A stretch of 34,680 bases of DNA from a virus (Duplodnaviria > Caudoviricetes): positions 1 to 34,680 of the IMG/VR virus record IMGVR_UViG_3300005326_000096. One strand, written 5' to 3'. The position numbers and the translations under genes were made by a program. The notes under the pieces were generated by a model. The model was not told the DNA's origin, made no database searches, and worked only from the letters and a program-made list of their open reading frames with translations. This document shows, piece after piece, positions 6,208-23,081 of the stretch (positions are counted from its first letter, which is position 1; each line of letters opens with the position of its first letter).

Positions 6208-6363
6208 ATGAAAACTTCAATTCTATTTTCAGTTTGTAAGAATACAGGATTAAAAAGATTTTTGCAAATGCAAAGAAATGATATTAAGGAATTAGGGGAT
6301 ATTAAAGTAATAGATTTAATCAATATGAATATTGCACCTGCTGTACATAGTGTATATAGATAG
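6208..6363 (+). CDS. hypothetical protein, 51 aa (not in ORF track)
   Basis: AAAGGAG RBS; MKTSILFSVCKNTGLKRFLQM...VHSVYR*. Confidence 0.55.
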   Translation: MKTSILFSVCKNTGLKRFLQMQRNDIKELGDIKVIDLINMNIAPAVHSVYR

Positions 6364-6371
6364 ATATAATT

Positions 6372-6397
6372 AAGGGACTATACAACTAGTCCCTTTT
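6372..6397 (+). terminator. intrinsic terminator
   Basis: AAGGGACTA/TAGTCCCTT stem plus T tract. Confidence 0.7.
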
Positions 6398-6674
6398 CTC
6401 TATGCTGATTATCAAATATAACCTACCTAGCAAGCCCTACAAGCGTATATATACATATACCCTATACCATAGTATACCCTGCACTATACACCTACTAATA
6501 TAGTACAATACATATAGTCATATATACACATGATCTGCATATAATAATATAAAGATATAAATGTATATTACAATGTATATATACATTATTAATTATGTAT
6601 GAATATACATAGTATGCAACCAATATACATTGATACCCTTCCGCCTGTGTCCTCCCCACATAGACCCGCCCACC

Positions 6675-19607: not shown

Positions 19608-20534
19608 ATGACAATTTTAAAAGAAAACATACAAGATTTTAAAAAGTATACTGATATTCTTCGCATTGAAAAGTGTAAGGAGATTATGGATGCTAAAGAA
19701 GTGGTTGTTACTGAAAAGATTCATGGAAGTAATTTTAGAATTAAAGTAACCAAAGAAGGATTAATTCTAGGTAGCAGAAATTTAACCCTCGATGGAACTA
19801 ATGATAACTTTAGTCAATTTATGCCTATTTTTGAAGCACTCGACCATGATAAAATTATTGCAGAGTTTGTAGCAGAATTAATTGTAGGTAGCGAAGTAAT
19901 TATCTTCGGGGAAGTATTTGGAGCAGGATATGCTAAAGGATGTACCTATAAAGACGTTCATGCTTTTAGAGTGTTTGATATTTTTATTAATAATAAACCA
20001 GTAGATTATGATGAATTAGAAGCAATTTGTATTAGACTTGGTTTAGTAACAACCCCATTTTTGTATCGAGGAAAACCTGATTATGAATTATTCCTTTCTT
20101 TAATTGGAAAATCTAATCTTACAGTAGAACAAGATACAGGAGAGGGAATTGTAATTAAAGCATATGGACATTATGATCGTAACGGAAGACCTTTATTTGC
20201 TAAAATGGTAAGTGAAAGATTTGCGGAAGCTAAGTCTGTACCAGTGCCAATCTCCGCTGAAAAGATGGCGGAAAGAGAAGTATGTCAATTATTTGCTGAA
20301 ACGTATGTAACAGAGGGAAGAATTAATAAAATGATTGCCCAGTTAAAAGAAGCAAATATCTATACAGGGGAAATGCAAGATATGAAAAACTTAATTCCTG
20401 CTTTATGGAAAGATTTGGAGAAGGAAGAAAGTGATGTATTAGAGATTTTATACAATAAAGGTATTAACAAGAAGTCTATTAATGGAGCATGTACTAAATT
20501 ACTAGGAAAAATTTATGCAACTATGCAAAAATAG
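19608..20534 (+). CDS. RNA ligase, Rnl2 family
   Basis: TEKIHGSNF (motif I), FGE, FDI, EGIVIK, FAK motifs plus an Rnl2-like C-terminal helical domain (YVTEGRINKM). Confidence 0.88.
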   Translation: MTILKENIQDFKKYTDILRIEKCKEIMDAKEVVVTEKIHGSNFRIKVTKEGLILGSRNLTLDGTNDNFSQFMPIFEALDHDKIIAEFVAELIVGSEVIIFGEVFGAGYAKGCTYKDVHAFRVFDIFINNKPVDYDELEAICIRLGLVTTPFLYRGKPDYELFLSLIGKSNLTVEQDTGEGIVIKAYGHYDRNGRPLFAKMVSERFAEAKSVPVPISAEKMAEREVCQLFAETYVTEGRINKMIAQLKEANIYTGEMQDMKNLIPALWKDLEKEESDVLEILYNKGINKKSINGACTKLLGKIYATMQK

Positions 20535-20537
20535 TTG

Positions 20538-20566
20538 TTGACTTTGATACTAGGTAGTGCTATAAT
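20538..20566 (+). promoter_or_regulatory. strong sigma-A-type promoter for the ncRNA array and Ro60 gene
   Basis: TTGACT-17 bp-TATAAT with TG extended -10. Confidence 0.8.
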
Positions 20567-20707
20567 AATAAATGTAAAGAGGAACTGCAAAGTTGTTATA
20601 ACTTTAGTACCTCCAAGCTAAACCTCCTTTATTGATTTGTGTTAGTTTGTTGTCGGACAGAGGGGAAACGAGAAGTGAAAACCTTCTCCATCCCCTCACA
20701 ACTACAT

Positions 20708-20835
20708 AAGAGGTGCTAGAAAGATTACATCTTTTGCCATTATAAAGAGTAGTTCAGAGGTAGAACACCGAGATATGCTTCTCGGAGGACGTTGGTTCGA
20801 ATCCAACCTAAAGTTATCTTTCATTATTTCCTCTT
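20708..20835 (+). ncRNA. Y-RNA-like clamp unit 1 carrying a permuted tRNA-like domain (CCA end upstream)
   Basis: AAGAGG/CCTCTT and GAAAGAT/ATCTTTC stems; D arm, anticodon-like arm and T arm (GTTGG-TTCGAAT-CCAAC); TCTTTTGCCA lies 5' of the body. Confidence 0.8.
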
Positions 20836-20840
20836 TACAT

Positions 20841-20967
20841 ATGGGGTGCTAGAAAAGTTTACATCACTTCTAATGACGATTTGTGAGTTCGAATCTCACT
20901 CTTGCGTAAACACGCAGGATAGTTTAACTGGTAAAACGCGAAAATAAACTTTTCATTATTTCCCTAT
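20841..20967 (+). ncRNA. Y-RNA-like clamp unit 2 carrying a circularly permuted tRNA-Arg(UCU)
   Basis: ATGGGG/CCCTAT and GAAAAGTT/AACTTTTC stems; order is anticodon loop CTTCTAA, T arm, loop-closed acceptor stem, D arm. Confidence 0.85.
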
Positions 20968-20974
20968 TACATAC

Positions 20975-21075
20975 CCTGTGAGGATAGAACACGCGGCTAT
21001 CACCCAAATCCCGAATGATACTAGTAAATGTCGGGAGGATTGTAGGAGATGTGGGACATGCGACCCCACTACAGG
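20975..21075 (+). ncRNA. orphan four-way-junction RNA
   Basis: CCTGTG/TACAGG closing stem enclosing GATAG/CTATC, TCCCGA/TCGGGA and GTGGG/CCCAC hairpins. Confidence 0.55.
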
Positions 21076-21084
21076 ATATTAATT

Positions 21085-21159
21085 ATGAGGTGCTTGTAAG
21101 ATTACATCAACAAATTATTTGAATTAGTTACACATTTAGTCTTACACCTTTTTCCTCAT
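21085..21159 (+). ncRNA. clamp unit 3, short AU-rich cargo
   Basis: ATGAGG-TGCT-TGTAAGAT-TACATC...GTCTTACA-CCTTTTT-CCTCAT. Confidence 0.75.
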
Positions 21160-21220
21160 TACATATTAATGTCGTCACTTATGGGACTGTGACGTTAAGT
21201 ATAGTCTCAAACCAATTTAA

Positions 21221-21281
21221 TTGAGGTGCTCGTAAGATTACATCTAGGAAAATGAAACGTTATCTTACACTTTTTCCTCAG
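21221..21281 (+). ncRNA. clamp unit 4, minimal cargo
   Basis: TTGAGG-TGCTC-GTAAGAT-TACATC...ATCTTAC-ACTTTTT-CCTCAG. Confidence 0.75.
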
Positions 21282-21297
21282 CTAATTAAAACTAAAT

Positions 21298-21467
21298 ATG
21301 GGGTGCTTAGAAGTCTACATCAAACATTAATAAGAAGACAGTTTACCAATTTTGAGTGTGAGATTCCTGAGTTATTTAAACGTCCTTCGGGACAACAATT
21401 ATTCTTGATAACGGATAGAGTATCTAAGTCGTTACCGAGACAAGTTGACTTCTTAAATCTTCCCCAT
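21298..21467 (+). ncRNA. clamp unit 5, multi-hairpin cargo
   Basis: ATGGGG-TGCTT-AGAAGTC-TACATC...GACTTCT-TAAATCTT-CCCCAT; internal GTCC-TTCG-GGAC tetraloop hairpin. Confidence 0.75.
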
Positions 21468-21560
21468 TTTTATTTTATAAGCCGAGTGTGAAAGTGAAGC
21501 GTACATCACTAACCACTTGGCTTTTATTTATCCAAATTTAAAATTAAAGGAGAGATTATT

Positions 21561-23081
21561 ATGACAGTAAAAACATTTGTAAGTGCAAACCCTAAGTCAA
21601 GACCAGTAGTAGGATTTGAGGGTGGAGTAGTTTATGATATGGAACTTAAAGAGTCCATCGTAAATATGCTTTGTTTGGGATTAATTCAAGGAAATTTCTA
21701 TCAAGACGAAAAAGAAGTTATTCAACGTACTAAGGACGTTTATACAAATGCTCTTAAAAAATGCCCTGATTTCCTAGCTAAAGCGGCAGTATACGCACGT
21801 AACACAGTTGGAATGAAATTACAACCAAATATTGCATTAGTTTATCTTTCCACACTAACAGATAAAACTTTGTTTAAGGCTGTGTTCCCACAAATTATTA
21901 AGAACCCTAAAGACTTAAATGACTTTGTTAACATTTGTCGCAAAGCAGGGATTCGTGAAGGATTGGGACGTTCTGTAAAGAAAACAGTAAACATGTGGCT
22001 GAATCACTTTATGACAGAATACCATGCTTGCCGTTATGGTGGAAAACTTGCGGAAGTATTAAAAGCTACTAGACCAGTACCTTGTGATAGTGAAGTACAA
22101 GAAATATTCTCTTATATCACTACAGGGAAAACTGATTGTGGAATGTTACCAAGAGCAGAAGCATTACAAACTGTTATTAGTGCATTAAATAGTGGAATGG
22201 TAAACCAATTAGTTCTTTCCACTATTACTGTTCATGGATTACAAATGGAGGAATTAAAACATACTTTTGGAAACTTAGATGCAGACCAAAAGAGAAAAGT
22301 TTTTGAGTTCTTCATTCCTAAGTTAGCTTTTATGGCTACTGTGTCAAACTTAGTTACTATTGAACGTGTTTATGATGGGAAAGTTCCAAAACATGTTGTT
22401 GATATGGTTTCAGCTAAGTTGATGGACGTTGAAGCATATAAAAAGTCTCGTATGTTACCTTTCAGACTTATTACTGCAAGGGATATGACTTCTGTTAGAG
22501 ATTGGCAACGTGCTATTGAGAGATTAATAACCGCAGGAGTTAAAGGAAACTTTGATGTACTAGAAGGTACTAGAACATTAGTAGCAGTAGACACATCTAG
22601 TTCAATGAATAGTGCATTAACACCATCTTTAACTTGTAAAACTGTAGCTTCAACATTTGGAGCAATGTGTATTCTTGGAATCGAAGGTTCTTCTGCTTAT
22701 GCAGTAGCAGACACAATGAAACCAGTACGAGTTATGACCGATGAAGTCTTTACACTTGCTAAAGAAATTGCTAGTTTAAATGTTGGATATGGGACTTATT
22801 TTGAGCAGATTATGCAACATTACACAGATCAGAAATATGTAATTCTTATTACAGATGGTGAGTCTGCGGATAACTTAGAGAAAAAATGGATAAGTAATAA
22901 AAAAGTAGCTGGGGCTAAGTTAATCATTTGGCAGTTACAACCTTATGGACATACCCTAGCTTCTCAAAAACGTAAAGATGTAATTTATTTTCAAGGATAT
23001 TCCGAGTCAATCTTAGGAGCGATTCGTAATGTAATTGAAGGCAAGGGACAACTTGACGATATTGAAAAAATTACATTATAA
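21561..23081 (+). CDS. rsr: Ro60-related protein (TROVE + vWA domains)
   Basis: TROVE signatures (GNFY, KAAVYAR, GLGRSVKKTVNMW, SRMLPFR) and vWA MIDAS residues (VDTSSSM, GT, ITDGE); adjacent Y-RNA-like elements. Confidence 0.88.
   Translation: MTVKTFVSANPKSRPVVGFEGGVVYDMELKESIVNMLCLGLIQGNFYQDEKEVIQRTKDVYTNALKKCPDFLAKAAVYARNTVGMKLQPNIALVYLSTLTDKTLFKAVFPQIIKNPKDLNDFVNICRKAGIREGLGRSVKKTVNMWLNHFMTEYHACRYGGKLAEVLKATRPVPCDSEVQEIFSYITTGKTDCGMLPRAEALQTVISALNSGMVNQLVLSTITVHGLQMEELKHTFGNLDADQKRKVFEFFIPKLAFMATVSNLVTIERVYDGKVPKHVVDMVSAKLMDVEAYKKSRMLPFRLITARDMTSVRDWQRAIERLITAGVKGNFDVLEGTRTLVAVDTSSSMNSALTPSLTCKTVASTFGAMCILGIEGSSAYAVADTMKPVRVMTDEVFTLAKEIASLNVGYGTYFEQIMQHYTDQKYVILITDGESADNLEKKWISNKKVAGAKLIIWQLQPYGHTLASQKRKDVIYFQGYSESILGAIRNVIEGKGQLDDIEKITL

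Follow-up and report, generated by a model that had tools for sequence, protein, structure and literature searches.

A noncoding array next to a phage Ro60 gene contains a Y RNA of the YrlA type (unit 1) in which a tRNA-like module is permuted and joined to the handle through its acceptor stem, between positions 67 and 68. In our preferred reading, to which we assign a probability of about 0.6, Ro60 probably binds this RNA and RNase P probably opens it, yielding a tRNA mimic of two pieces that is not spliced. The Y RNA identity and the topology are highly probable, opening by RNase P, argued by analogy, is slightly favored, and the partner enzyme is a guess. What appears to be new is the acceptor-stem graft at 67/68. 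The permutation as such was already known because YrlA has been described as a circularly permuted tRNA look-alike, and its origin from a dimeric tRNA transcript has been discussed (Wang et al. 2018, 10.1101/312249).

The Ro60 locus and its Y RNA array

The window, that is, the entire 34,680-base stretch analyzed here, is a virus record with terminase, portal, and capsid genes. A noncoding Y RNA array of approximately 1 kb lies between an RNA ligase gene and a Ro60 gene (Table 1). Ro60 chains with solved structures match residues 14–491 of the product of the gene at 21561–23081 (E-values 2e-8 to 5e-8). Because the named relatives of this protein (38–45% identity) are found in Clostridia and Bacilli, the phage probably infects a member of the Bacillota. 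Of 399 genomes scored in the class that was searched, one contained the Ro60 subfamily, namely the genome on which the search was centered, and no related viral locus was found with the RNA ligase as the query.

By pattern count, the handle motif occurs five times in the array (0.03 expected). UACAUC is present at all six handle sites of the window, only two of which carry a tRNA module. A short variant of the handle unit is located at 21481–21521, and handle-less hairpins at 20575–20700, between the promoter candidate and unit 1, and at 21164–21200, downstream of the UACAUA at 21160. The array also includes a skipping-rope RNA (RF02924) that begins at a MazF motif; Ro60 is not mentioned in the available text of the paper reporting the discovery of this RNA. 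Contigs of an independent run are 98–99% identical to parts of the array that include 20779–20914 and exclude the displaced acceptor strand. One of these contigs, at a depth of 2, has T at window position 20870, which would change the unit 2 anticodon from UCU to UUU but may be an error. Elsewhere in the window, an AT-rich noncoding region (6340–6630) that contains UACAU six times along with numerous TATA-like repeats is possibly an origin or promoter region.

Table 1. Coordinates of the array, its units, and the flanking genes in the window
Feature	Position	Strand	Basis or remark
RNA ligase gene	19608..20534	+	PF09414, E 2e-23; upstream of array
Sigma-70-type promoter candidate for array	20538..20566	+	11/12 matches, extended -10; consensus match only
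UACAUA (exact Bacillota MazF motif), 5' boundary of unit 1	20703..20708	+	motif match; putative cleavage site
Unit 1, flanked by two MazF motifs; predicted Y RNA of 133 nt	20704..20836	+	4-nt 5' overhang, closing stem, one 3' U
5' arm of Y handle, unit 1	20708..20730	+	outer stem 20708–20713, inner stem 20719–20725, UACAU 20726–20730
Displaced acceptor 3' strand (68–72), G73, CCA	20731..20739	+	register and pairing
3-nt linker closing acceptor stem	20740..20742	+	predicted RNase P/3'-trimming site, by analogy with PMC4201824
tRNA body 1–67	20743..20809	+	acceptor 5' strand, D arm, anticodon arm (8-nt loop), variable loop, T arm, C66-U67
3' arm of Y handle with preceding 6-nt spacer	20810..20835	+	inner stem 20816–20822, outer stem 20830–20835
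UACAUA between units 1 and 2	20836..20841	+	motif match
Unit 2, YrlA order	20837..20968	+	Arg(UCU) anticodon hairpin kept, break near 28/29; YrlA 29.1 bits, gathering 69
UACAUA at unit 2 3' end/skipping-rope RNA start	20968..20973	+	motif match
Skipping-rope RNA inside array	20973..21077	+	RF02924, 45.7 bits, gathering 36.7
Handle unit lacking tRNA arms; UACAUA at 21160 downstream	21086..21158	+	pattern
Short-loop handle unit	21222..21279	+	pattern
Handle unit with long non-tRNA cargo	21299..21466	+	pattern
Ro60/TROVE-vWA gene	21561..23081	+	TROVE E 6.5e-9; presumed binding partner

The handle of unit 1 corresponds to that of YrlA RNAs, which have been described as neighbors of Ro60 in 254 bacteria and in 22 phages and share a conserved YUAY (Chen et al. 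2014, PMC4201824); in Salmonella and Pseudomonas YrlA, the 5' arm ends in UACAU (PMC4201824, supplementary text 2). As in YrlA, a long stem forms from the 5' and 3' ends of unit 1, with YUAY on top, and the unit lies within ~4 kb of a Ro60/TROVE gene (~730 nt upstream, same strand). The GNCGAAN0-1G motif is absent from unit 1 (there is no CGAA in its 5' arm) and present in the related array L041. The combination of a T arm located 5' of the D arm with a handle in the anticodon stem is found in unit 2 and not in unit 1, and the YrlA model RF02553 failed to match unit 1 and matched unit 2 below the gathering score. Unit 2 is an ordinary YrlA-order unit with the anticodon loop kept. The loop of its anticodon-like hairpin consists of the same seven letters as that of the "V" arm of Mycobacterium smegmatis YrlA (PMC4201824), and unit 2 is therefore not a fresh capture. 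The published "V" arm itself resembles an anticodon arm.

A permuted tRNA module in unit 1 and in other phages

All tRNA positions are present in unit 1, in a permuted order: 68–72, N73, CCA, the linker, 1–7, D arm (20752–20766), anticodon arm (20768–20785), T arm (20791–20807), and 66–67, with the handle grafted at 67/68. The acceptor comprises six of the seven pairs followed by G73 and CCA, with U1-U72 mismatched. All segments named in the initial annotation are present, including the displaced strand with G and CCA (20730–20739) and the body (20743–20808), and its description of a permuted tRNA module with an encoded upstream CCA, on the same handle as unit 2 but with a different breakpoint, holds, as does the abnormal 8-nt anticodon loop. 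The break itself, placed in that annotation at about 66/67, can be placed with equal justification at 67/68, behind the complete UACAU, because T20809 supplies U67 on the 3' side, and 67/68, the register common to the homologs described below, is preferred. In this register, the 3' spacer of unit 1 is 6 nt long and hence equal to that of unit 2, so the previously noted difference (7 versus 6 nt) disappears.

On the linear window, ARAGORN detected no tRNA, and the Rfam tRNA model covered only its positions 6–65 in unit 1 (20748–20809, 39.9 bits). When circularized in silico, the cargo of unit 1 scored 112.4 with ARAGORN; this score was rejected as a test of chance because shuffling the 12 nt upstream reached it in 57 of 500 trials. 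A direct test, requiring at least six of the seven acceptor pairs and CCA in register, was passed by 838 to 1109 per 1,000,000 random 12-mers and by 438 of 200,000 shuffles, that is, with a chance probability of ~1e-3. Replication of the layout in six other phage records is stronger evidence than this figure. Thermodynamic folding alone does not favor the cloverleaf and prefers another fold: in ViennaRNA predictions, the handle, anticodon, and T stems have pair probabilities of 0.73–1.0, the acceptor pairs ~0.25, the D stem 0.33, and pairs 6-67 and 7-66 near 0, and the cloverleaf model (−29.4 kcal/mol) lies 3.7 kcal/mol above the minimum (−33.1 kcal/mol; z −1.5). A blastn search of phages with units 1 and 2 returned generic tRNA-level matches only, and the closest array available, L001, contains no unit 1 ortholog.

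Viral contigs were scanned for the handle motif, followed by CCA and then a D arm. The first scan gave 103 matches, 25 of them with a downstream T arm; these were 22 ordinary tandem tRNAs, one sequence that was not tRNA-like, and two acceptor-first units (L353 and L366). The second scan used the UACUUC version of the motif; the 120 matches listed of approximately 180 included 29 with a T arm, 17 without an upstream T loop, and four acceptor-first units (L410, L439, L490, and L503). Thus, the layout of unit 1 is present in at least six further phage records, and each of these homologs sits amid other handle units. TROVE is adjacent in five of the seven cases (the window, L366, L410, L439, and L503); for L353 and L490, whose fragments are 24% and 38% complete records, respectively, no TROVE match was found. 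Because both scans required CCA and the motif, and thus covered CCA-bearing units of this layout, the occurrence of these two features in the homologs is not independent evidence; the independent evidence for the layout is the register, the pairing, the closing handle, and the link to Ro60.

An automatic test of all 182 tRNA-like cores in the fetched loci singled out exactly unit 1 and its six homologs as cores that lack a downstream acceptor strand and have an upstream one with CCA in register; of the other cores, 139 were normal, six passed both tests, and 30 passed neither. Acceptor pairs were counted from anchors since a MAFFT alignment lost the acceptor register. Cognate pairing of strand 68–72 in the seven acceptor-first units amounts to 4, 5, 5, 5, 5, 5, and 5 of five pairs, compared with a mean of 1.45 for non-cognate combinations in a swap control, none of which (0/42) reached 4. 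The stems differ in sequence, with two to four different letter pairs at each of positions 1–5. Pairs 6-67 and 7-66 form in strict register in five of the seven units and in L353 after a 1-nt shift by hand; L490 fails. N73-CCA follows the five-pair strand in exact register in all seven, with linkers of 3–8 nt. The graft site in the tRNA is constant, and the handle ends 3, 4, 5, 5, 5, 5, or 6 nt into the motif. The anticodon loops are 8, 7, 7, 7, 6, 4, and 6 nt long; five are abnormal, including the 7-nt loop of L410, which lacks U33, and the 7-nt loops of L353 and L366 are plausible. The acceptor-first pattern was matched in 15 of the 401 genomes of the phylum searched, none with the layout of unit 1, and a sequence-only model built from the seven units recovered, across 64 sources, its own members and ordinary tRNA-level matches only.

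For a broader survey of the handle, we started from 42 Ro60-linked or pattern-found loci and, requiring UACAU, obtained 113 distinct handle units in 36 loci. By arm pattern, 68 have no T arm, 25 follow the YrlA order, 16 show just a T arm (on inspection by eye, several are YrlA-order or D-first), three are D-first, and one, unit 1, is acceptor-first. Handle-only scans of viral contigs yielded mostly chance matches, and a single generic classifier for both handle families, which recovered one known unit, was too crude. In distant phage arrays, UACUUC replaces UACAU, and one of these has the GNCGAA motif. A parallel family of this kind (L038–L062) is located 700 nt upstream of Ro60, and none of the 18 UACUUC-family loci scanned reached the Rfam gathering score for YrlA.

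The survey brought to light several further arrangements. A third topology, with the D arm, an anticodon arm (an intact Lys, Asp, or other 7-nt loop), the T arm, and the acceptor hairpin last, has its break near 7/8 and occurs at L065:2458, L067:3290, L081:3348, and L243:2256; in the last of these (2256–2440), an insertion of ~100 nt flanked by 4-nt direct repeats lies in the acceptor loop. YrlA-order units with complete anticodon loops (Lys, Ile, Asp, Leu, Asn, and Val), which rebuild to high-scoring tRNAs, include L067:3007, L073:1984, L074:3157, L081:2591, L258:1501, and L001:210. Bacillales contigs and megaplasmids (L069 633–3200, L070 989–3200, L226, L227, and L229) contain as many as nine handle units whose long cargos are not tRNAs, and in L069 and L070, a degenerate tRNA directly precedes Ro60. 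At L065 1460–2070 and L083 2740–3320, a gene that by eye resembles elongation factor Ts is located in or just before the array, beside tRNA clusters.

Proposed processing and alternative explanations

UACAU is the most overrepresented 5-mer in the array (10 versus 1.17 expected); six copies belong to the handle UACAUC and four to UACAUA in unpaired spacers at unit boundaries (20703, 20836, 20968, and 21160; 4 versus 0.48 expected). The MazF of Bacillota, present in 80% of reference species, is described as cutting strictly at U^ACAUA (10.64898/2026.08.06.743204; PMC10893535) and shapes phage decisions in Bacillus (10.1101/2023.04.27.537455). Cutting at these sites would yield a unit 1 of 133 nt and a unit 2 of 132 nt, both closed by a six-pair stem and bearing a 4-nt overhang and a single 3' U, which suggests that host MazF may cut the array into units. 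L001 (1–1388) has seven spacer UACAUA sites versus 0.51 expected, and no enrichment was found in the other 22 of the 24 arrays tested, a set that left out the six further acceptor-first loci. Because only two of the 24 arrays are enriched, the putative MazF route would be lineage-specific and not a property of the topology. The internal UACAU was considered as a MazF site and rejected, given that the strict site is UACAUA (10.64898/2026.08.06.743204) and the internal sites of the window read UACAUC; moreover, the motif is found in Salmonella and Pseudomonas YrlA (PMC4201824) and in Treponema loci, and distant arrays have UACUUC. In the genes of the window, UACAU occurs 10 times versus 22.4 expected from codon shuffling (rank 16 of 682) or 14.7 from a Markov model, and UACAUA is absent (2.9 expected), a weak depletion of MazF sites.

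We propose the following route for unit 1. The array would be transcribed from the promoter candidate at 20538, and in the lineage of this phage, host MazF would release the units at the spacer UACAUA sites. Ro60 would then bind the handle. A cut by RNase P before position 1 and 3' trimming would expose the encoded CCA, with the two resulting pieces held together by the handle and acceptor stems. The Ro60 particle could thereby present the tRNA elbow and the acceptor end, along with a non-decoding anticodon arm, and tether or distract a host enzyme acting on tRNA ends; the first candidates would be PNPase or another 3' exonuclease. A Ro60-bound, two-piece mimic is proposed because RNase P cuts M. 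smegmatis YrlA, which gains a CCA end in vivo (PMC4201824), and because the Ro60 of a Thermus phage, together with its Y-like RNAs, is described as binding and attenuating host PNPase (PMC12135203). Some observations argue against parts of this proposal, among them the ViennaRNA preference for another fold, the plausible anticodon loops of L353 and L366, and the failure of pairs 6-67 and 7-66 in L490. The cleavage of YrlA by RNase P has been attributed to a seven-pair acceptor stem (PMC4201824), unlike the stem of unit 1, which is U1-U72 mismatched and split by the graft, and the GNCGAA Ro60 motif is missing from the window handle.

The same U-U end and interruption of the stem are consistent with a doubtful but serious alternative, in which the Y RNA topology is retained, the acceptor loop stays uncut as in most YrlA RNAs, the elbow shape alone is used, and the CCA is a tRNA relic. 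Most YrlA acceptor stems are, by prediction, poor substrates for RNase P (10.1101/312249), and the CCA of the homologs was required by the search. However, the exact register of N73-CCA behind the five-pair strand in seven unrelated sequences, with short linkers, argues against this alternative, as does the usual absence of CCA from the closing loop of YrlA-order units in these arrays.

It is improbable that unit 1 is a true permuted tRNA gene from which the handle is excised and positions 67 and 68 are ligated via a circle, by the phage RNA ligase, to give a decoding or repair tRNA. The constant graft site would fit such a gene, and in many units the circularized cargos are complete tRNAs (for example, Arg 117.5, Lys 125.2, Asp 124.7, and Asn 124.4); an RNA ligase gene flanks the window array, PF09414 is also present in the L410 and L490 records, and possible processing of YrlA to a canonical tRNA has been raised (10.1101/312249). 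Yet PF09414 is missing from the records of L439 (98% complete), L503 (100%), L366, and L353, and RtcB was found in none of the five records tested, such that the L439 and L503 phages have neither ligase. The anticodon loop of unit 1 is not the canonical 7 nt, most of the seven loops are abnormal, and a fixed splice geometry is not observed, with the distance from the handle to position 68 varying by 3 nt and the 3' spacers varying as well. Known permuted tRNAs are described as using bulge-helix-bulge junctions at 20/21, 37/38, 50/51, and 59/60 (PMC3978253). A structural graft accounts better for the slipping register and the decayed loops than a site of cutting and joining does.

Even less probable is the capture model of the initial annotation, in which circularized tRNAs are broken directly ahead of a UC and become attached to the handle at a fixed UACA|UC boundary. 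Several breakpoints on one handle family (in the anticodon stem or loop, near 7/8, and at 67/68) are compatible with capture. A defined processing or capture site at this boundary is not supported: UACAU is the published YrlA motif and is also found in units with non-tRNA cargo. C follows UACAU in a minority of units, the next base being T in 70, C in 25, A in 13, and G in 5 of the 113. Assignment of the conserved UC to the tRNA fared unevenly; the best join uses the handle U in window unit 2, L033:3272, L073:2241, and L081:3059, but in several YrlA-order units, for example in L067, L073, L074, and L083, the anticodon stem closes without it. Given that the next base varies, that 3' spacers in YrlA-order units range from 2 to 8 nt, and that distant arrays use UACUUC, a fixed UACA|UC site is unsupported, and these comparative data on motif, next base, and breakpoints weaken the capture model. 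An origin at the DNA level from tandem tRNA genes, as proposed for YrlA (10.1101/312249), explains the CCA and the short linker, so no RNA step is needed. Equally remote is a functionless pseudogenized unit with the hairpin and CCA as leftovers or chance; the U1-U72 mismatch, the 8-nt loop, the weak predicted fold, and the lack of an ortholog in L001 would fit, but the ~1e-3 chance probability, the covarying stems in six independent records, and the intact handle and flanking MazF motifs argue against it.

Comparison with known RNAs and biological implications

Unit 1, as a putative Ro60-bound, two-piece mimic, combines features of several described RNAs. With YrlA (RF02553; PMC4201824, 10.1101/312249) it shares the same-strand Ro60 neighbor, the long terminal handle whose end is YUAY/UACAU, D and T arms like those of a tRNA, and a loop-closed acceptor stem of the kind likened to a circularly permuted tRNA. 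In YrlA, as described, the order is T, acceptor, and D, with the handle in the anticodon stem, whereas in unit 1 it is acceptor, D, anticodon, and T, with the handle at 67/68 and the anticodon arm free; unit 1 also lacks GNCGAA and a match to RF02553. M. smegmatis YrlA, in which the closed acceptor loop is opened by RNase P, is the model for the proposed processing of unit 1 but differs in the anticodon-stem graft, the intact seven-pair stem, and the addition of CA, the CCA of unit 1 being fully encoded (PMC4201824). Deinococcus radiodurans Yrn1 resembles unit 1 in having D, anticodon-like, and T arms in tRNA order, a Ro60 handle, and an abnormal loop; by its published description, it differs in that the anticodon arm lies between the D and T arms, no separate acceptor hairpin with N73-CCA is reported there, and its handle, unlike that of unit 1, resembles metazoan Y RNA (PMC4201824). 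Algal and archaeal permuted tRNA genes and two-piece tmRNA likewise have the 3' part before the 5' part and a short loop that closes the acceptor stem, and permuted tmRNA stays unligated in two pieces (PMC3978253), as proposed for unit 1. By contrast, the permuted tRNAs are ligated, at junctions located elsewhere, and decode, and neither they nor tmRNA are described as carrying a Ro60 handle.

In the literature searched, with some reviews and supplementary tables outside its scope, we found no description of an acceptor-grafted Y RNA, and none of MazF sites in Y RNA arrays; a prior mention of either is possible. tRNA scanners miss or mis-call acceptor-first units.

The role and origin of the tRNA-like domain of bacterial Y RNAs are an open question in the literature. 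A second conserved graft site indicates that the position of the handle can change while the elbow and the acceptor end persist and decay of the anticodon loop is tolerated; this pattern points to the acceptor end as a working surface. The window array offers matched natural variants, one anticodon-grafted and the other acceptor-grafted. The exact MazF sites suggest that the phage Ro60 particle is linked with a toxin of the host that had previously been implicated in phage decisions. More speculatively, and with low confidence, phages might carry a distinct class of Y RNAs that mature into two-piece, CCA-ended, possibly aminoacylated tRNAs with a Ro60 handle on the acceptor stem; tRNAs grafted at no fewer than three positions on one handle family would then be interchangeable baits for host tRNA-handling factors, in an array switched on, in this lineage, by host MazF. 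At the far edge of these possibilities, the intact-loop units (L353, L366, and the YrlA-order Arg, Lys, Asp, and Asn units) could be ligated, which would make them the first functional permuted tRNAs in bacteria or phages. If the array is indeed triggered by MazF, it would be a phage sensor of host stress or defense.
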